The translations under genes and the position numbers were made by a program. From a virus: DNA of 36,434 bases. Below are positions 3,493 through 11,036 of the stretch, piece after piece (position 1 is the first letter of the stretch; the number at the start of each line of letters is the position of its first letter). Where the stretch lies: the UHGV virus genome UHGV-0123062. One strand, 5' to 3'. Below the pieces are notes generated by a model. It ran no database searches and was not told the DNA's origin. It saw only the letters and a program-made list of their open reading frames with translations.

Positions 3493-3735
3493 ATGGGCAA
3501 AGAATATAAAACTCTCATTAACAAAGCACTTGAGCGTTTTTATTTTCGCTTAAGTGCATCAGGCGCTCATGCTGAACGTGCAGCCCGTGACTCATTGACC
3601 AGGGCAATCCGGAGTCTGTATGACGTGGCTTTTTACGCTGATGATCTGGATGCACTTAACGAACTTTCCGAGCTGATCTGTGCCGCAGAATGCGGGGAAC
3701 ATATTGAACCGTATAAGCTGGGGAATATCGCATGA
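3493..3735 (+). CDS. Hypothetical early-region protein
   Basis: ATG at 3493 with AAGGG RBS, inside listed ORF 3442..3735. Confidence 0.45.
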   Translation: MGKEYKTLINKALERFYFRLSASGAHAERAARDSLTRAIRSLYDVAFYADDLDALNELSELICAAECGEHIEPYKLGNIA

Positions 3736-3845
3736 GTATATTTATCTCATGGCTTGTTCTGATTATTTCGGTGGCCTGCGCTATTGGAATTATGCGAATT
3801 ATTCATTCAGTAAAAAAGATTGAACGTTTTTTCACTGGTGAATAA
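3732..3845 (+). CDS. Putative small hydrophobic protein (37 aa)
   Basis: ATGA overlap with the upstream stop (translational coupling); predicted product MSIFISWLVLIISVACAIGIMRIIHSVKKIERFFTGE has a single TM-like segment; below the ORF-track size cutoff. Confidence 0.3.
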   Translation: MSIFISWLVLIISVACAIGIMRIIHSVKKIERFFTGE

Positions 3846-3938
3846 CGATACAAATAAAACATCAAATTAAATAAGAAAACGTGAAAACCATCCGTATTAA
3901 CGGAGGTATTCGCACACGCAAATAACGGAGATACAAAA

Positions 3939-4349
3939 ATGCACGCAAAAGAAGAAGGTATCATCATAGCACTGAAAGAAATTTCAAAGACAGAAAACGA
4001 AGTAGCGAAAAAAGCCATAGCAAATAATCATATGGACGTCGCAACCCACACACTGATAGTCGCAAGAGTCACGGCAGAAGCAGCCGAAATTATCGCAAAA
4101 CAGGATGCTGAACTGGCGGTTCTCAGAACACAACCCGTCACCGGACTGGATTTGTCTAACACCGGACGCCTTATTTACACAATTGGCTCGGAGCTACAGC
4201 GATACACCATTATCGCCGGGTTACAGGATAAATACCTGATCACTCCTCACCCCATAAGGGAATCAGAAATTCTGACAAATCTCCGCCTGATAGAGCGCTC
4301 TCAAGTCGCATTCATTGATGACGCACAGTGCACCGTATTTAACGCATAG
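3939..4349 (+). CDS. Hypothetical early-region protein
   Basis: 136-aa ORF with GGAG RBS; preceded by an AT-rich intergenic stretch. Confidence 0.5.
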   Translation: MHAKEEGIIIALKEISKTENEVAKKAIANNHMDVATHTLIVARVTAEAAEIIAKQDAELAVLRTQPVTGLDLSNTGRLIYTIGSELQRYTIIAGLQDKYLITPHPIRESEILTNLRLIERSQVAFIDDAQCTVFNA

Positions 4350-4372
4350 GGTTACTGGGCAAAGGGGGCGCA

Positions 4373-4576
4373 ATGGCAATTAAGCATTTTCCCGTCGTTC
4401 GCTTTACCTCCAGAGGGCGCGAATACGAGGTCGACGAACGCCTGATTACCACTATCGACAAACATCGTTCGGAAAAGGATGCACACCACATCTACCTCAC
4501 TGACGGCACTTACTTCTGCGCCACTAATGTGGCGCGGGTAAACCTTATCCGACAGGTACAGGAGCAGCGTAAATGA
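4373..4576 (+). CDS. Hypothetical protein, first gene of a four-gene coupled operon
   Basis: AAAGGGGG RBS; its stop overlaps the next start (ATGA). Confidence 0.55.
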   Translation: MAIKHFPVVRFTSRGREYEVDERLITTIDKHRSEKDAHHIYLTDGTYFCATNVARVNLIRQVQEQRK

Positions 4577-4791
4577 GCAGAAGGCGAATCACACGCAGGC
4601 ATCGCCGCACACACATGAATTCCTTACCGACGCTGAAAGAACTCATTCAACACGAGATCGCTGATTTCTGCGCAACGCTGGGGTCGCCTGGTGAACCGGA
4701 AACACCAGAAGCGATGCAGCGCGAACTCATGATGCGCATCGATAACGTTTTTGACTTTTTCCTGAATAACAAAAGAGAGCAATCAACATGA
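4573..4791 (+). CDS. Hypothetical protein with Arg-rich N-terminus, operon gene 2
   Basis: ATGA start/stop overlaps on both sides; N-terminus MSRRRITRRHRRTH. Confidence 0.5.
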   Translation: MSRRRITRRHRRTHMNSLPTLKELIQHEIADFCATLGSPGEPETPEAMQRELMMRIDNVFDFFLNNKREQST

Positions 4792-4991
4792 ACAAAAAGA
4801 CCTGGTTTCGCGCATACATGTGGGCGCTGGTATGCGTCCTCGTCTCTTTCATTCTGTATGCAGGACTACTCCCCCGAATGATTTCATCAGACAGCTCCTT
4901 CCTGGTATTGCTGGGCATTTTCATTGCCATGCTGTACCCGGCAGGCGTTGTTCGCCTTTTCAGTAAGTACATCAAGGAAATCAAGCAATGA
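4788..4991 (+). CDS. Small integral membrane protein (two predicted TM helices), operon gene 3
   Basis: Hydrophobic segments WALVCVLVSFILYAGLL and FLVLLGIFIAMLYPAGVV; ATGA coupling on both sides. Confidence 0.55.
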   Translation: MNKKTWFRAYMWALVCVLVSFILYAGLLPRMISSDSSFLVLLGIFIAMLYPAGVVRLFSKYIKEIKQ

Positions 4992-5818
4992 AGAAATTCA
5001 AACTCTTTCAGATTCTCCCGCTTTTTGCCGCCATCCTGCTGGTTGGTTGCGATCGCGTTGAGCCAGGTAATGTGGGAATCAAAGTCAACAAACTGGGCGA
5101 CGACAAAGGCGTCGGCGAAGTAGTTGGCGTTGGCCGCTACTGGACAGGCTGGAATACAGAGGTTTACATCTTCCCGACTTTCAAACAAATGAAGACTTAC
5201 GATGAGCCGTTCAACTTCCAGATGAGTGACGGCACAACCATCGGCTATCACATCGGCGTGGCCTACAAAGTTGATCCATCCAAAGTTACCACGGTGTTTC
5301 AGACCTACCGCAAAGGCGTGGACGACATTACCGACACTGACCTGCGCCAGAAGATCGCCGACGCACTCAACCGACTGGCCAGCAAAATGACCACCGATAA
5401 ATTTATCGACGGTGGCAAGTCTGAACTGCTGGATTCAGCACTTAAAGACATTCAGGCAGAAATGACACCTATCGGCATTCAGGTAATGAGCCTCTCTTAT
5501 GTGGGTAAGCCGGAATACCCACCAACCGTTATCGACAGCATTAATGCCAAAGTCACGGCAAACCAGAAAACCCTGCAACGTGAACAGGAAGTCAAGCAAC
5601 GCGAAGCTGAAGCCAACATGCTGCGCGCAGAAGCTGCCGGACAAGCCGATGCCATTCGCACAAAAGCCCAGGCTGAAGCCGACGCCATTCGTTTACGCGG
5701 TGAAGCTCTGCGCCAGAATCCCGGCGTTATGGAGCTGGAAGCAATCAACAAATGGAACGGCACGCTGCCGCAATACATGACCAGCAACACCGCTGTTCCG
5801 TTTGTTCCGGTGAAGTAA
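4988..5818 (+). CDS. SPFH/band-7 (stomatin/prohibitin-like) lipoprotein
   Basis: Lipoprotein signal with lipobox (LLVGC); central region consistent with an SPFH domain; C-terminal Ala/Glu/Arg-rich coiled-coil-like segment (REAEANMLRAEAAGQADAIRTKAQAEADAIRLRGEALR). Confidence 0.65.
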   Translation: MKKFKLFQILPLFAAILLVGCDRVEPGNVGIKVNKLGDDKGVGEVVGVGRYWTGWNTEVYIFPTFKQMKTYDEPFNFQMSDGTTIGYHIGVAYKVDPSKVTTVFQTYRKGVDDITDTDLRQKIADALNRLASKMTTDKFIDGGKSELLDSALKDIQAEMTPIGIQVMSLSYVGKPEYPPTVIDSINAKVTANQKTLQREQEVKQREAEANMLRAEAAGQADAIRTKAQAEADAIRLRGEALRQNPGVMELEAINKWNGTLPQYMTSNTAVPFVPVK

Positions 5819-5824
5819 TTAAAC

Positions 5825-5869
5825 CCGGCCAGTGAAAATCGCTGGCCGGAGCAGTATCAGGATTTTTTT
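5825..5869 (+). terminator. Hairpin CCGGCCAG-N9-CTGGCCGG followed at a distance by a T7 run
   Basis: Seen directly downstream of the SPFH gene; the T-run is about 14 nt from the stem, so not a textbook intrinsic terminator. Confidence 0.4.
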
Positions 5870-5885
5870 AGTATGCCGTTCTCAC

Positions 5886-6120
5886 AAAAAAACCGCTTGC
5901 CATGCCGCAATCAGTCAGGTTACATTTTCGCTGCACCTCATAAAACGGGTGCCGGGTTTCGCAGCCTGCTGACAACCAAAGCGCACAACCGCGCCAGCGG
6001 TTTTTTTGTGCGTACTGTATTGCCACGTTTTTTTCGCGTCAGAATTATGGCGGGGCGTACGGGGCCGACTTCGGTCGGGCCGGGTTCTTTGGTTGCCGGT
6101 ACTGCGAACCCCGTACGTCT
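5886..6120 (+). ncRNA. Structured non-coding region; candidate small RNA or regulatory element
   Basis: No credible ORF; 11-bp inverted repeat AAAAAAACCGC (5886..5896) / GCGGTTTTTTT (5997..6007); terminator-like ACCGC-gcca-GCGGT plus U7 at 5988..6007; GCCGAC-TTCG-GTCGG hairpin enclosed by a 9-bp long-range stem CGTACGGGG (6056..6064) / CCCCGTACG (6110..6118). Confidence 0.3.
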
Positions 6121-6186
6121 CGCCACCCACAGTTTCGCAGCTCTGGATGGTGAGTTTTCAAAACTTACAACCAAAGAGGCCACACC

Positions 6187-6417
6187 ATGGCAAACCGCAA
6201 ACAGCACCGCGCTATCGCGGAGCGTCGTCACATCCAGACTGAAATCAACCGCAGACTTTCCCGCGCATTCCGCGTCGCTAAAATCATGCACATCAATATG
6301 CTGCATGAGCGTAGCTGCGAACTTTCAAACCTCTACTCATCCGCTGTTTTCAGCTATCTGGCGGATGATCTGCGCGAGCTTCAACAGCTCATCCAGCAGC
6401 AAAACAAACTCCATTAA
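6187..6417 (+). CDS. Hypothetical small basic protein upstream of A
   Basis: 76-aa ORF with AGAGG RBS. Confidence 0.5.
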   Translation: MANRKQHRAIAERRHIQTEINRRLSRAFRVAKIMHINMLHERSCELSNLYSSAVFSYLADDLRELQQLIQQQNKLH

Positions 6418-6489
6418 TTCCTGTTCCGGGCCTTTCCTGCACCTTGCGGCGGGAGGCCTTCGTACATCTGTAACAAGAGGATTGCCGCA

Positions 6490-6855
6490 ATGATTCTCGC
6501 CAACGACTTTCTTGAATACCTGCTCAACACAGAGCGTGATCTTGCCGTTCGCGTGCGTGAACGTTATGACATGTACCTGAAATCCCTGCCTGTACCGCAG
6601 CTCGCTGACGGAAAGATTGTTATTGATGGTCGCTACATGATTGACAGCCACGAGGGAAATTACAGGCTTTACCGCATTGAAGGTGGCACTCCGTCCGTTA
6701 TTGGCATTTACCAGCGCCCATCCTCTGCAATCGTCGATGTGATTGCCGACAGCATCCGCATCACACATCGCCATGCCGACACAGAAGACACCGTGCTGGA
6801 AATTCAGCGGCTGGCTGCCGTTTGCCGTGACACCCTGAACGGTATGACGCAGTAA
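6490..6855 (+). CDS. Hypothetical protein immediately upstream of A
   Basis: 121-aa ORF with AGAGGA RBS; tightly packed before A. Confidence 0.55.
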   Translation: MILANDFLEYLLNTERDLAVRVRERYDMYLKSLPVPQLADGKIVIDGRYMIDSHEGNYRLYRIEGGTPSVIGIYQRPSSAIVDVIADSIRITHRHADTEDTVLEIQRLAAVCRDTLNGMTQ

Positions 6856-6861
6856 ATCAGT

Positions 6862-9684
6862 ATGACGACAGAGTACATCAGGGACTGGCAACAACCGCGC
6901 CACGCAGTGGGGCGTGAAGGAACGGGGATCCCCGCACCTGAATCCGCGCTTTCCTCCTGGCTGGATGCCTACCGGGCAGAGAACGAGCGCCGACAGGAAA
7001 AGGCTGATGCGGCGTTCTCCGCCACGCCGCTGGGCAACCTGATTAATAAAAGCCTGGATGCACAGGAAAAACAGGACAAAACTATCACACTGGCAGGAGA
7101 CGCCAGAAAACAGGCACGCGGCGCGGTGGATGAAGCCATGGCCTCGCTGCGCCTGCTGCCGTCCTATCTGCGCGATCCGCTTATTCGCCACCTCTCCTTC
7201 CTGCGCAAAAAACAGGAAGCCGATCGCCGGAAAGGCAAAAAGAGCTGGCAGGCGGAACGCTATGCACGCGGAACCCTGCGCAAAATATTCGAACGTCTGG
7301 ATCGCACTGACGGACGCTGGCTGACACCGGGTTATCGCTCCCTTGCCGGACGCGAACGCCTGGACGATTTGCTTTACCTGCCGCAGCTCAACAAACACCA
7401 GATACAGACGCTGGCCACCATGACGGCGGCGATGTTCAGCAGCACCTTCGAAAAACTCTGCGATGGCTTTGGCGCGACCGATGGCGAACTGACCATGGAT
7501 GTAACGCTGAAGACGTATCAGATGCTGGCCCGCATGGCGTTACACCTGCACATCATGCCTCCACATTATGACGCACTGACAACAGATAAAGACCGGAGGA
7601 ACGAACCGGACACGGAGCTGCTGCCGGGCGCAGTCCTTCGCCTGACCTGTGCGGAATGGTGGAAACGCAAACTGTGGCTGTTACGTTGCGAGTGGAGAGA
7701 AGAACAACTCCGCGCCGCCTGTCTGGTTTCCAGAAAAACATCGCCCTATCTGAGCCAGGACGCATTAAGCGAGTTTCGCGCACAGCGCGAGAAAACACGC
7801 GATTTCCTGAAAAGTTTCATGCTGGAAAATGAAGACGGGTTCACGATTGATCTCGAGACGGTGTATTACGCGGGAGTAAGTAACCCGGTTCACCGTAAGG
7901 CAGAAATGATGGCCACCATGAAGGGGCTGGAACTTCTGGCCGAAGCCCGTGGCGACAGAGCGGTGTTTCTGACTGTCACCTGCCCGTCAAAATACCACGC
8001 AACAACGGAGAACGGTCATCCGAATCCCAAATGGAACGGGGCCACCATGCGCGACTCCAGCGATTACCTGGTTAACACGTTTTTTGCGGCGGTCCGCAAA
8101 AAACTGAACCGCGACGGTCTTCGCTGGTATGGCATCCGCACGGTGGAGCCTCACCATGACGGCACTGTGCACTGGCATATGATGGTCTTTGCACATCCGG
8201 ACGAGATTGAAACCATCGTGTCCCACGTCTGCGATATTGCCATTCAGGAAGACCGCCACGAGCTGGGCGATGACATAACTCCGCGTTTTAAAGCGGAGTA
8301 CGTCGACGGCTCAAAAGGCACGCCAACCAGCTACATCGCCACCTACATCGGAAAGAACCTGGACAGCCGCGCCGTGGATGGTATCGACCCGAAAACGGGC
8401 AAGCCACGCGTTGACCACGAAACCGGAAAATCAATGGCCGAGAGCGTGGAGCGCGCCATCGGCTGGGCGCGCCTTCACCGGGTCCGCCAGTTCCAGTTCT
8501 TTGGCATCCCCTCCCGTCAGGTGTGGCGTGAACTGCGCCGCCTTGCCAGCCAGATGGCACGCAACCCGGAAGGCCCGCAACGGCTGAAGGATGACGCAAT
8601 GGATGCAGTGCTCGCTGCCGCTGATGCCGGGTGTTTTGCCTCCTACATTGAAAAACAGGGCGGCGTACTTGTTCCACGCAAAGACTACCTGATTCGCACC
8701 GCCTACGACCTCGCAGATGAGCTGAACGATTACGGCGAACAGAGCGTACAGATTTACGGGATCTGGTCACCACTCATCGGGGAGTCTTCCCGTGTGTGCA
8801 CACATCCGGATAACTGGAAGCTGGTAAGACGTAAACCGGAAGCGGAAGACAGCGCCCGCGAAAATGGTTTTGACCTTCAGGGCGGCCCTGCCGCCCCTTG
8901 GACTCGTGGCAATAACTGTCCCCGTGTACAGGAAACGGACAACAACGGGACAGAACAGCCGGAAGAACGGCCAGCACCGTGGCCGCAGCTTCCTGACGGC
9001 GTTGACGTGAACGAATGGATGCGCTCACTGAAACGGCACGAACGCCGGGCGCTGATGCGTTCGCTTCGTGACAAACAGGCAAAAAACAGCAGTGATGAAA
9101 TGCAGAGCTGGACACAGAGCCGCAAACAGCAGCGGCCTTTGCCTGATAACCACGAATTACTCGCTAAAGAATGGCGGGAATCTGCCGAATCTCTCGGCCT
9201 GCATATCGGTGAACAGCAGATGCAGCACCTGTTACGGGGCGGCAGCCTGTACGTTGACGGCAGCATCATTGCACCGCAGGGATTTGAAATTGTACGCAAA
9301 CCGGATACCCGCCCGGACAGCCGAATCACGCAGCTCTGGCAGCGCCTGAGCCGTAATCACGGCGTAAGCAGCACAGAGATCCGCCATAACCCAGTCGCCA
9401 GCTATCTGGAACAACTGGGGGCATCAGACCCCGAAGCCGCCGCACGTCTGGCATCCACACTTCAGCAGGACCAGAACACCATGCCCCCCCCCGTTACCGT
9501 GCTTTCTGACATGCTGCGCGCCATCCGTGACGCAGAGCACGCACAGAGAATCAGTGAAACCACTGAACGCGCCCACCGCAAAGCAGACCTGCTGCGGGGT
9601 AGCCTGACCAGTGGAAACAAAAAACAGACAGAAACGGGACTCACAAATCCCGTAAATGAGCAAAAAACGCGCCGCGATATATGA
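6862..9684 (+). CDS. A: Rolling-circle replication initiator endonuclease (P2 A-like), with long C-terminal extension
   Basis: HUH motif (HWHMMVFAHPDE) and Y-x3-Y active-site pair (SYIATYIGK); 940 aa, longer than P2 A as recalled. Confidence 0.9.
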   Translation: MTTEYIRDWQQPRHAVGREGTGIPAPESALSSWLDAYRAENERRQEKADAAFSATPLGNLINKSLDAQEKQDKTITLAGDARKQARGAVDEAMASLRLLPSYLRDPLIRHLSFLRKKQEADRRKGKKSWQAERYARGTLRKIFERLDRTDGRWLTPGYRSLAGRERLDDLLYLPQLNKHQIQTLATMTAAMFSSTFEKLCDGFGATDGELTMDVTLKTYQMLARMALHLHIMPPHYDALTTDKDRRNEPDTELLPGAVLRLTCAEWWKRKLWLLRCEWREEQLRAACLVSRKTSPYLSQDALSEFRAQREKTRDFLKSFMLENEDGFTIDLETVYYAGVSNPVHRKAEMMATMKGLELLAEARGDRAVFLTVTCPSKYHATTENGHPNPKWNGATMRDSSDYLVNTFFAAVRKKLNRDGLRWYGIRTVEPHHDGTVHWHMMVFAHPDEIETIVSHVCDIAIQEDRHELGDDITPRFKAEYVDGSKGTPTSYIATYIGKNLDSRAVDGIDPKTGKPRVDHETGKSMAESVERAIGWARLHRVRQFQFFGIPSRQVWRELRRLASQMARNPEGPQRLKDDAMDAVLAAADAGCFASYIEKQGGVLVPRKDYLIRTAYDLADELNDYGEQSVQIYGIWSPLIGESSRVCTHPDNWKLVRRKPEAEDSARENGFDLQGGPAAPWTRGNNCPRVQETDNNGTEQPEERPAPWPQLPDGVDVNEWMRSLKRHERRALMRSLRDKQAKNSSDEMQSWTQSRKQQRPLPDNHELLAKEWRESAESLGLHIGEQQMQHLLRGGSLYVDGSIIAPQGFEIVRKPDTRPDSRITQLWQRLSRNHGVSSTEIRHNPVASYLEQLGASDPEAAARLASTLQQDQNTMPPPVTVLSDMLRAIRDAEHAQRISETTERAHRKADLLRGSLTSGNKKQTETGLTNPVNEQKTRRDI

Positions 9685-9730
9685 AGCGCACACAAAACAG
9701 GCAAAAACGGGATTTAAAAATCCTGTAACC
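9630..9730. promoter_or_regulatory. Candidate parC-like centromere/operator: two palindromic repeat units
   Basis: ACGGGA-N8-TCCCGT (9634..9653) and ACGGGA-N8-TCCTGT (9707..9726) immediately upstream of parM; the first unit lies inside the 3' end of A. Confidence 0.4.
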
Positions 9731-9760
9731 GATTAATTAATCAACATAAGGAAAAGCGAC

Positions 9761-10720
9761 ATGAAAATTTGTATCGACGACGGCTCCACCAACATCAAGC
9801 TGGCATGGACTGAGAACGGCGAACGCCGCAACGCCATCAGCCCGAACAGCTTCAAGTCGGAATGGTCTGCGCCGTTCGGTGGCACGCAGCCCGCGAACTA
9901 CATGCTTGATGGCGTGCGCTATGGTTTTGATCCGGTCAGCGATCGCTTTGTCCAGACGACCGACACGCAATACCAGTACAGCGATGTGAATGTAATTGCC
10001 ATTCATCACGCGCTGGTCAAATCAGGCATCACACCACAGGAAGTGGATGTGGTTGTCACCCTGCCACTGAGCGAGTATTTCGACACAAACGCACAGCCGG
10101 ACATGGCCAACATCAACCGCAAAAAAGCGAACGTTATGCGCCCGGTGGAGTACCAGAACGGCGAAGCATTCACTATCCGTAACGTGCGGGTTATGCCTGA
10201 ATCCATTCCGGCTGGCTTTAAGGCACTGGCTGACATGAGTCCGTTTGAATCCCTGCTGATTGTGGATTTAGGCGGAACCACGCTGGATGTGGCAAAGGTT
10301 CAGGGACAACTGGCAGGTATCAGCCAGGTGTTTTGCGATCCACACGTAGGCGTTTCCCTGATGTCCGATGCCGTACTGTCGGTGATGGCCACTAACGGTA
10401 TGCGTACCAGTCACCACATCGCCAATACCATTATCGAACATCGCCATGATGAAGCCTGGCTGCGCCAGCACATCCACAATGACGCGCATTACGCCAGCCT
10501 GATGGCGGTTATTCGTGAAAAGGAAGAAACACTGAAACAACGCGTGATCCGCGCGCTGGCGGGTTTTTCGGGTTACGGGCGGGTGATGATTGTCGGTGGC
10601 GGGGCAGAAATTGTGGCACCCGCTATCCGCGAAGCCTGCGGAGTTAATGCGACTTTCATCGCGGACGGGGTGCCACAGTTTGCTCTGGTTAATGGGCTGT
10701 ACGCAATGGACAAGGAGTAA
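9761..10720 (+). CDS. parM: ParM/StbA-family actin-like partition ATPase
   Basis: N-terminal phosphate-1 motif (ICIDDGSTNIKLAW), ISPNSFK, YSDVNVIAIHHAL, VMPESIPAG, LIVDLGGTTLD and IVGGGAE match my recollection of plasmid R1 ParM along the whole length; AAGGA RBS. Confidence 0.85.
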   Translation: MKICIDDGSTNIKLAWTENGERRNAISPNSFKSEWSAPFGGTQPANYMLDGVRYGFDPVSDRFVQTTDTQYQYSDVNVIAIHHALVKSGITPQEVDVVVTLPLSEYFDTNAQPDMANINRKKANVMRPVEYQNGEAFTIRNVRVMPESIPAGFKALADMSPFESLLIVDLGGTTLDVAKVQGQLAGISQVFCDPHVGVSLMSDAVLSVMATNGMRTSHHIANTIIEHRHDEAWLRQHIHNDAHYASLMAVIREKEETLKQRVIRALAGFSGYGRVMIVGGGAEIVAPAIREACGVNATFIADGVPQFALVNGLYAMDKE

Positions 10721-10724
10721 ACCA

Positions 10725-11036
10725 ATGACGACACCAACCAGACGGATAAGTTTCTATCTGAAGCCCGCCGCCGTCAAGAACGAAGGCGAAGCATGCGCCT
10801 GGCTGGACAGCCTTACACCAGAAGCCCGCAAAAGTGGTCAACGCGTGGCTTTTCTGGCCGGGCTGGCACTACTGAAAATGAATCCGGCAGAGGCTTACCG
10901 ACTGGCTGCATGGGCTGATGATGAGGCGTTATCAATGACACAAACCAGGACAGAACGCCCCGCGTCACAGCCAGTATCAACCGCACAGATAACCAGTCAG
11001 ATGGCCGGAAATATCCGGGCGTTATTTCCCGAATAA
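10725..11036 (+). CDS. parR: ParR-like ribbon-helix-helix partition adaptor
   Basis: Immediately downstream of parM with AAGGAG RBS; N-terminal beta-strand segment (RRISFYLKP), FLAGLALL and C-terminal NIRALFPE resemble R1 ParR as recalled; start trimmed to ATG 10725 inside listed ORF 10590..11036. Confidence 0.65.
   Translation: MTTPTRRISFYLKPAAVKNEGEACAWLDSLTPEARKSGQRVAFLAGLALLKMNPAEAYRLAAWADDEALSMTQTRTERPASQPVSTAQITSQMAGNIRALFPE

Follow-up and report, generated by a model that had tools for sequence, protein, structure and literature searches.

What a phage gains from an SPFH protein, and how many of the surrounding genes work with it, are the questions raised by a short run of early genes in UHGV virus genome UHGV-0123062. 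The window analysed here is that whole stretch of 36,434 nucleotides, and the element that carries it is an Escherichia coli prophage of the P88 type (Xuanwuvirus, Peduoviridae, P2 family) integrated beside dmsABC. Four open reading frames (ORFs), ORF1 to ORF4, follow one another on the + strand, joined by ATGA start/stop overlaps at 4573, 4788 and 4988. The original prediction took them for a single obligately co-expressed operon in which an SPFH lipoprotein and a small membrane protein, recalling the NfeD/SPFH pairs of bacteria, are accompanied by two further small proteins, and it suggested superinfection exclusion, membrane-based abortive defence, or modulation of host proteases or lysis timing as roles. 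We describe here a different partition of the locus, with ORF3 and ORF4 forming a two-gene cassette that recurs in unrelated phages, and ORF1 and ORF2 being separable backbone genes that lie outside it.

The SPFH assignment of ORF4 is supported by both sequence and predicted structure. The Pfam family Band_7 (PF01145) matches residues 23-209 with 108.8 bits against a cut-off of 23.6 (E 4.2e-31; profile positions 2-176 of 176), and PHROG 200 (lipoprotein) is matched at E 7e-112. An AlphaFold2 model (22 sequences; mean predicted local distance difference test score, pLDDT, of 74) contains a beta-rich plus alpha/beta SPFH region at residues 21-176, and the coiled-coil-like tail that had been proposed appears as a predicted helix of 65 residues (179-243), followed by a short helix (245-254) and a low-confidence C-terminal tail that holds the strongly conserved motif NKWNGTLP...PF. 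Foldseek comparison of this model with the PDB gives matches over ~280 columns at probability 1.0 and E ~1e-12, and these include HflC/HflK (7vhq, 7wi3, 9cz2), prohibitin (8rrh, 9o9z), erlin (9vvg, 9o9u), stomatin (9oh9) and QmcA-YbbJ (8z5g); a profile search of PDB sequences returns both prohibitin-2 and HflK/C, though only weakly (E 4e-4 to 6e-3). We rejected a closer identification as HflK or HflC themselves, given that ORF4 scores only 22.7 bits with the NCBIfam equivalog TIGR01933 (cut-off 159.4) and 24.8 bits with TIGR01932 (cut-off 134.4), and we conclude that it is an SPFH protein of full architecture and no HflK/C orthologue. The family itself is already annotated, in Pfam, in PHROG and as 'SPFH domain-containing protein'; we also note that the gene is often mislabelled 'serine protease' in records of Shiga toxin (Stx) phages and others.

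ORF4 is also a lipoprotein by its sequence features, as had been proposed. It begins with MKKFKLFQILPLFAAILLVGC-DR, of which residues 1-21 comprise a signal peptide and the lipobox LVGC; the codon of the lipobox Cys21 lies at 5048-5050, and Asp stands at the +2 position, as it does in about 100 of 120 close homologues. Asp at Cys+2 is the classical signal for retention at the inner membrane in E. coli (the '+2 rule'). A sister clade is without the lipobox Cys and would be anchored by an uncleaved signal sequence. Together, the Asp and the Cys-less sister clade indicate a location on the outer face of the inner membrane.

The small protein encoded directly upstream, ORF3, has hydrophobic segments at residues 10-28 and 37-55 and basic termini, and is predicted to be a hairpin of two transmembrane segments with both termini in the cytoplasm. 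It matches PHROG 1130 (membrane protein) at E 3.4e-22, and nine of 11 divergent partners of SPFH proteins also match this family. These partners can be aligned at only 16-42% identity, and share a motif, G-x-L-x-P-x-[ML]-[IV]-S, that covers the end of the first transmembrane segment and the periplasmic loop. The proposed likeness to NfeD/SPFH pairs holds for the gene arrangement, in which the small gene directly precedes the SPFH gene on the same strand, but not for the identity of the partner. NfeD proteins are 140-150 residues long, with three hydrophobic stretches and an OB-fold beta domain (PMC2636767); ORF3 has 67 residues, two transmembrane segments and no soluble OB-fold domain, and the NfeD family PF01957 does not match it at E <= 0.1, nor any of 11 family members at E <= 1. 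We therefore rejected ORF3 as an NfeD protein, and note that the HflK/C-like and prohibitin-like subfamilies have no known NfeD partner (PMC2636767). The partner gene is unannotated in phiP27 (~3765-3950) and in several P1-like records.

The association of these two genes extends far beyond P88-like phages. A tblastn search with the SPFH protein gives matches in 778 phage records, among which are virulent phages as different as N4 (62%), jumbo phages, Vequintavirinae, Ounavirinae, Kayvirus (MbpS), crAss-like phages and Caulobacter phages. In isolated phages, an ORF of 64-68 residues with two transmembrane segments lies directly upstream of the SPFH gene, with an overlap of 4-17 nucleotides or a gap of 3-8 nucleotides; this arrangement is seen in N4 (gp19/gp20), SonariX, Klebsiella phage P18-100, phiP27, Vibrio phage CKB-S1, Rhizobium phage IG49, the crAss-like cr85_1, Stenotrophomonas phage BUCTxx99 and SSU5-like phage-plasmids. 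The SPFH cassette is present as well in P1-like and lambdoid Stx phages. Five different SPFH queries recovered 281 IMG/VR loci, and in 265 of these the ORF directly upstream of the SPFH gene matches the partner profile, whereas in a further eight it is some other small ORF with at least two transmembrane segments; when duplicate SPFH sequences are removed, the corresponding figures are 116 and eight of 131. The profile is also specific to this position, as 270 of its 272 matches among the 5406 ORFs of these loci are directly upstream of the SPFH gene. In 258 loci the partner-family ORF ends no more than 100 nucleotides from the start of the SPFH domain. The original prediction was thus right to pair a small protein having two transmembrane segments with an SPFH protein, and the pairing is far more general than was supposed there.

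In some sequences the two are one protein. A profile search of 1.84 billion cluster representatives yields 327 relatives at E <= 1e-30, 1363 at E <= 1e-10 and 3959 at E <= 1e-3, and 16 of the best 150 representatives of clusters at 50% identity are in-frame fusions with the partner at the N-terminus and the SPFH protein following it (hmmsearch E 7e-12 to 5e-3). In about half of the 16, read by eye, no Met is visible in the linker from which a separate SPFH protein could start. The AlphaFold2 model of one fusion (pLDDT 82) has three N-terminal helices and then the SPFH fold; one fusion was recovered in identical form from two sequencing runs, and another is encoded on a phage-like contig of 30 kb beside RtcB and a D5-type primase. 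One further sequence, P0150, in which the partner domain is C-terminal to SPFH, looks like read-through into a downstream gene and is not counted. Considered alongside the frequency of pairing, the fusions argue for two partners that function 1:1. All 19 fusion proteins in one alignment keep the lipobox Cys, and its internal position fixes a topology in which the termini of the partner are inside, its loop is outside, and the SPFH domain is outside. It is possible that such a precursor is lipidated and cleaved internally to give the two partners.

How, then, should the two genes upstream be regarded? Each ATGA overlap is preceded at 6-12 nucleotides by a Shine-Dalgarno-like purine run, and the four genes are probably translationally coupled. 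However, overlaps of four nucleotides occur at five of the 18 same-strand gene junctions of the early region, so the overlaps reflect tight packing rather than a dedicated four-gene unit. The overlaps reported by the original prediction are real, but the obligate unit built upon them is not supported. A comparison with phage vB_EcoM-569R5 is particularly informative. By blastn, the window is 99.5% identical to that phage over 1-4579, 74% over 4648-4781 and 96.5% over 5883-9794, and the segment in between, 4782-5882, which contains ORF3, ORF4, a hairpin and a T-run, has no blastn counterpart in it. The cassette thus shows the discrete presence or absence between near-identical phages that is one mark of a moron, the other being a promoter and terminator of its own. 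Phage Chuche has ORF1 and a 72-residue ORF2 with the same overlap and is without the SPFH cassette, and conversely the cassette is found without ORF1 or ORF2 in phiP27 and in P1-like, SSU5-like, N4 and crAss-like phages. In P88 and most of 57 P88-like IMG/VR loci the order is ORF1, a winged-helix gene, a longer Ea22-like gene and then ORF3-ORF4, and only ten of the 57 have the arrangement of the window. Among 5426 complete E. coli genomes, a query of ORF1 plus ORF2 matches 1209 (108 of them over at least 80% of the query length), whereas ORF3 plus ORF4 matches 392 (about 7%), with 34 places on plasmids. The indel in 569R5, the Chuche and P88-like arrangements and the E. coli genome counts together show that the functional unit has two genes and not four.

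These observations bear directly on the proposal that the four coupled genes are one obligate NfeD/SPFH-like module with two accessory proteins, expressed from the prophage for defence of the lysogen by superinfection exclusion or abortive infection. Three consecutive overlaps are what such a module would have, a domain of the ORF2 family does precede ORF3 in 57 of 57 P88-like IMG/VR loci, and lipoproteins and small membrane proteins are well known as exclusion factors. Nonetheless, a four-gene unit is largely refuted by the separability of ORF1 and ORF2, by the winged-helix gene inserted between them in other P88-like phages, by the genome counts and by the absence of an NfeD partner. The defence role fares little better. 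The cassette is part of a repressor-controlled lytic early operon, a consensus promoter scan of the + strand at 3550-5890 gave no promoter-like site, and virulent phages carry the same pair. In PADLOC-DB 2.0 there is no match for ORF1, ORF2 or ORF4 and nothing meaningful for the upstream 136-residue ORF, and ORF3 has only a 21-residue match to PDC-M18B (E 0.0068). We consider this module very improbable as an explanation of the locus, and membrane-based abortive defence, as a form of prophage-expressed defence, is disfavoured along with it.

ORF1 and ORF2 are best viewed in their own right. Neither has a family in Pfam or NCBIfam, and the PHROGs list both as 'unknown function'. ORF1 is 82-97% identical in P88, Chuche and 569R5, whether or not the cassette is present. 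ORF2 has the Arg-rich N-terminus MSRRRITRRHRRT and is a short form of its family, whose C-terminal domain is common to the ead/Ea22-like protein P88 gp10. It is labelled a fragment by PGAP in an identical genome, although we treat it as a real short variant because the 72-residue Arg-rich form is conserved in Chuche and in a further locus, L018.

Table 1. Coordinates of the ORFs, the mobile cassette and the 3' hairpin in the window.
Feature	Coordinates	Strand	Remarks
ORF1, 67-residue small early protein, PHROG 3459	4373..4576	+	backbone gene of P88-like phages
ORF2, 72 residues, Arg-rich N-terminus, PHROG 4144	4573..4791	+	cassette neighbour
Mobile cassette: ORF3, ORF4 and 3' hairpin with T-run	4782..5882	+	1.1-kb indel, blastn
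ORF3, predicted 67-residue inner-membrane partner, two transmembrane segments, PHROG 1130	4788..4991	+	hydrophobic segments, profile match
ORF4, 276-residue SPFH/Band 7 protein, lipoprotein by sequence features, PHROG 200	4988..5818	+	Pfam, AlphaFold2, Foldseek
GC-rich hairpin, 11 bp	5825..5849	+	directly after ORF4 stop; T-run 5863-5869

The positions and lengths of the four ORFs in Table 1 agree with the ORF listing of the window. The surrounding gene order is integrase (- strand), repressor (- strand), cox (1558-2079, + strand), the early genes of the + strand, and then gpA, a replication endonuclease at 6862-9684 (Phage_GPA, E 1.8e-129). ORF1 to ORF4 lie between cox and gpA, within the early lytic operon, and their placement in the early region of a P2-like phage was correctly described at the outset. 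The one-directional early operon is interrupted by a small gene on the opposite strand (2513-2704, - strand), located between the cox-proximal genes and a DUF4761 gene and accompanied by a terminator-like site (2768-2737, - strand). Beyond gpA, ParM-like and plasmid-partition genes at ~9761-11036 (+ strand; coordinates transferred from the annotation of a related genome) are present as in P88, and hint at a plasmid-like maintenance option for a P2-family prophage.

The 3' end of the cassette has a structure of its own. The 69 nucleotides at 5812-5880 fold at -23.1 kcal/mol with a z-score of -3.45, and none of 200 shuffled sequences is as stable. The main element of this fold is the GC-rich hairpin at 5825-5849, a run of seven Ts begins 13 nucleotides after it, and the hairpin is kept in P88-like loci. 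A terminator scan did not call the hairpin and T-run; they may constitute a terminator of non-canonical form, or a 3' stabiliser of the cassette transcript. If they do end early transcription, expression of gpA would need to start in the IsrK/C4 region that follows and not at the cox promoter. That region contains an IsrK-type Hfq-binding small RNA at 5933-6007 (+ strand; Rfam 65.9 bits, gathering score 50), a C4 antisense RNA at 6043-6130 (+ strand; 87.1 bits, gathering score 45), a weak a1/b1 target-like match at 5920-5972 (Rfam) and, after the two RNAs, a 'derepression protein' gene (PHROG 3688; ORF 6187-6417). Directly upstream of gpA, this combination resembles the immI-like module of P1/P7 or an IsrK-like regulatory module of Gifsy-1. 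A 206-residue ORF at 5873-6493 (+ strand) overlaps both Rfam-supported RNAs and was rejected as a gene, being probably spurious; in 569R5 it is annotated as a hypothetical protein of 205 residues, and PGAP treats it partly as a pseudogene.

At the other end of ORF4, the lipobox coincides with a recombination breakpoint, in the interval 5039-5048 (ORF4 codons 18-21). The mature SPFH part has ~92% DNA identity to lambdoid/Stx alleles and ~92% protein identity to P1-like alleles, and for the signal peptide and the upstream partner gene the protein identity is just 20-44%. The partner and the signal peptide thus form a single diverging block.

Comparison with related systems shows which features are peculiar to the phage pair. 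N4 gp19 and gp20 are direct homologues: gp20 is 62% identical to ORF4, and gp19, with 68 residues and two transmembrane segments, belongs to the family of ORF3 and overlaps gp20 by eight nucleotides. N4 is, however, a virulent and unrelated phage (Schitoviridae), and it has Tyr and not Asp at Cys+2. The SPFH-NfeD operons of bacteria differ in that the small protein has an OB-fold, and in not being phage-borne; the predicted placement of ORF4, lipid-anchored and extracytoplasmic, is a further difference, as QmcA and YqiK face the cytoplasm. What QmcA-YbbJ, YqiK-YqiJ and YuaG-YuaF have in common with the cassette is a small membrane-protein gene directly upstream of the SPFH gene (PMC2636767) and, at least for QmcA-YbbJ, the overall SPFH fold (8z5g, Foldseek). 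The HflK/HflC-FtsH and prohibitin cages are alike in having SPFH1/2, a long coiled coil and a C-terminal cap motif, with the SPFH domains on the non-cytoplasmic side, as predicted for ORF4. Identity to them is only ~15-17%, ORF4 is apparently a single SPFH gene and not one of a hetero-pair, and its anchor is predicted to be a lipid where that of HflK/HflC is a transmembrane helix. In Kayvirus, the group of Staphylococcus phage K, the SPFH protein MbpS is 25% identical to ORF4 and the gene of a small membrane protein, MbpV, is again upstream and overlapping, although MbpS has a transmembrane anchor and no lipobox, MbpV is a protein of 102 residues with one transmembrane segment that lies outside the partner family, and the pair is situated beside lysis genes. 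Pasteurella multocida PM0222, which we set beside ORF4 by description only, is likewise a prophage-encoded HflK/C-like SPFH protein, but has been studied as a vesicle-secreted TLR1/2 agonist (PMC9872710).

Our search of the literature for functional studies of phage SPFH proteins found only annotation remarks, a speculation on Sec-dependent secretion in Kayvirus, and the PM0222 virulence paper. In a 2026 paper on an N4-like phage, the reason for the SPFH gene is called 'unclear' (PMC13239085). As far as we have found, no earlier work describes a conserved partner other than NfeD, the behaviour of the pair as a cassette, or the fusions.

The SPFH scaffolds HflK/C, prohibitin, stomatin and flotillin are now understood structurally as membrane cages, and SPFH proteins are described as assembling into rings that form domes (PMC12624060). 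On balance we favour, as somewhat the better bet, a model in which the two-gene cassette specifies an SPFH cage that would assemble with its two-transmembrane partner during lytic growth, at the periplasmic side of the inner membrane, and serve to insulate that membrane. ORF4 would be exported and lipid-anchored at Cys21, with Asp+2 predicting its retention at the periplasmic face, and by analogy with the known cages it may oligomerise through its long coiled-coil helix and C-terminal motif to form a ring or dome that fences off a patch of membrane. ORF3, encoded by the overlapping gene upstream, would be synthesised in amounts coupled to those of ORF4; its conserved periplasmic loop is the likely contact with the SPFH protein, and ORF3 could be either a rim subunit or an enclosed client. 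Transcribed with the early lytic genes, the cassette would supply this structure to the infected or induced cell and not to the quiet lysogen. We infer such lytic-cycle expression because the cassette is in an early operon here, because its neighbours in N4, CKB-S1, crAss-like and SSU5-like phages are early or replication genes, and because virulent phages carry it. The structure may then serve to keep the inner membrane insulated or stable while lytic growth proceeds, blocking either the genome entry of later phages or premature permeabilisation.

Several observations do not fit this model easily. Many distant relatives of ORF4 have Ser or Thr at +2, which by the E. coli sorting rules would direct them to the outer membrane. 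The partner is not universal, since Fifi318 and PhiSH19 are without a transmembrane partner, and Ab22 and Kayvirus (MbpV) have a protein with one transmembrane segment in its place. The fusions come only from single-member metagenomic clusters, the cluster representatives may be biased toward long and possibly artefactual sequences, and when one fusion protein was compared with isolated phages by tblastn, the SPFH part alone aligned. An internal promoter active in the lysogen may have escaped the consensus scan. The cage, the contact between ORF3 and ORF4 and the membrane location are all deduced and not observed, and the evidence for purpose is circumstantial; the data do not distinguish exclusion or membrane protection from the rival purposes. 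An SPFH neighbour in PhiSH19 that is annotated as a 'superinfection exclusion protein' was considered as evidence for exclusion and dropped, being soluble, acidic and not the two-transmembrane partner; the partner profile matches neither this protein nor T4 Imm.

The nature of the closest structural relatives suggests a plausible role in proteolysis, in which a periplasm-facing SPFH ring mimics or replaces the HflK/C or prohibitin-type cage around FtsH and alters turnover among membrane or regulatory proteins, for instance CII-like regulators, LpxC or phage proteins. Phage HflC-like proteins have been speculated to work in such a manner (PMC10269572), and it is consistent with such a role that the cages of AAA proteases, HflK, HflC and prohibitin, are among the best sequence and fold matches of ORF4, that its predicted orientation outside the cytoplasmic membrane is that of HflK/C, and that lambdoid phages have the cassette in their early-left accessory region. 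The similarity of ORF4 to HflK/C does not exceed that to erlin or stomatin, however; ORF4 scores far below the equivalog cut-offs and has no transmembrane N-terminus of the HflK type, and virulent phages, which have no lysis-lysogeny decision to bias, also carry the cassette, so that we regard protease modulation as unlikely. A slightly lower standing is appropriate for lysis timing, which we think quite improbable. Here the partner would be holin- or antiholin-like, and the SPFH cage would corral it, or the holin of the phage, and so delay or synchronise permeabilisation. In size and topology the partner resembles the class II holins, having ~67 residues and two transmembrane segments, with both of its termini inside and the C-terminal tail basic, and in Kayvirus the MbpV-MbpS pair stands between the endolysin gene lysK and tgl, MbpV having been noted as holin-like. 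The single match of a partner-family member to a holin Pfam family is weak and not significant (E 0.038), though, the cassettes of Gram-negative phages are found among early, replication and nucleotide-metabolism genes and not in lysis cassettes, and P88-like phages possess a separate set of late lysis genes at another place.

The phage could alternatively be a mere carrier of a lysogenic-conversion or virulence lipoprotein that leaves the cell, for instance in outer-membrane vesicles, and exerts its effect on the animal host. Prophages of pathogenic E. coli, including Stx phages and UTI89, commonly have the cassette, and the P. multocida protein PM0222, a vesicle-secreted activator of TLR1/2, has a part in virulence (PMC9872710). 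Against this, the same pair is present in virulent environmental phages of Vibrio, Rhizobium and Stenotrophomonas and in phages of gut Bacteroidota, and the conserved inner-membrane partner and Asp+2 favour a role in the cell envelope; we accordingly give this explanation hardly any weight.

An SPFH cage that may insulate the membrane is thus the reading we retain for the cassette of this prophage; the purpose of the cage may be exclusion or protection of the membrane, the timing of lysis or the control of FtsH. A broader proposal can be made, although it is speculative and we hold it to be doubtful: PHROG 1130 and PHROG 200 together might encode a virus-built membrane compartment of two components, an SPFH cage outside the cytoplasm and its dedicated non-NfeD partner, common to P2-like, lambdoid, P1-like, N4-like, marine and crAss-like phages, produced in some lineages as a fused precursor with an internal lipobox, and acting as a general inner-membrane shield. 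Such a shield would represent a new class of superinfection-exclusion or anti-abortive-infection device.

The phage version of the SPFH protein offers a different perspective from that of its bacterial relatives, in that it is part of a conserved two-gene unit with a small partner of its own, and this unit moves between phage families that are not related to one another, abundant crAss-like phages of the gut among them. What was a vague annotation thereby becomes a defined two-gene system that is easily tested. If it is true that passage across the inner membrane of the infected cell is under the control of the cage, then these pairs would amount to a widespread and unrecognised layer of the conflicts between phages, and between phages and their hosts.

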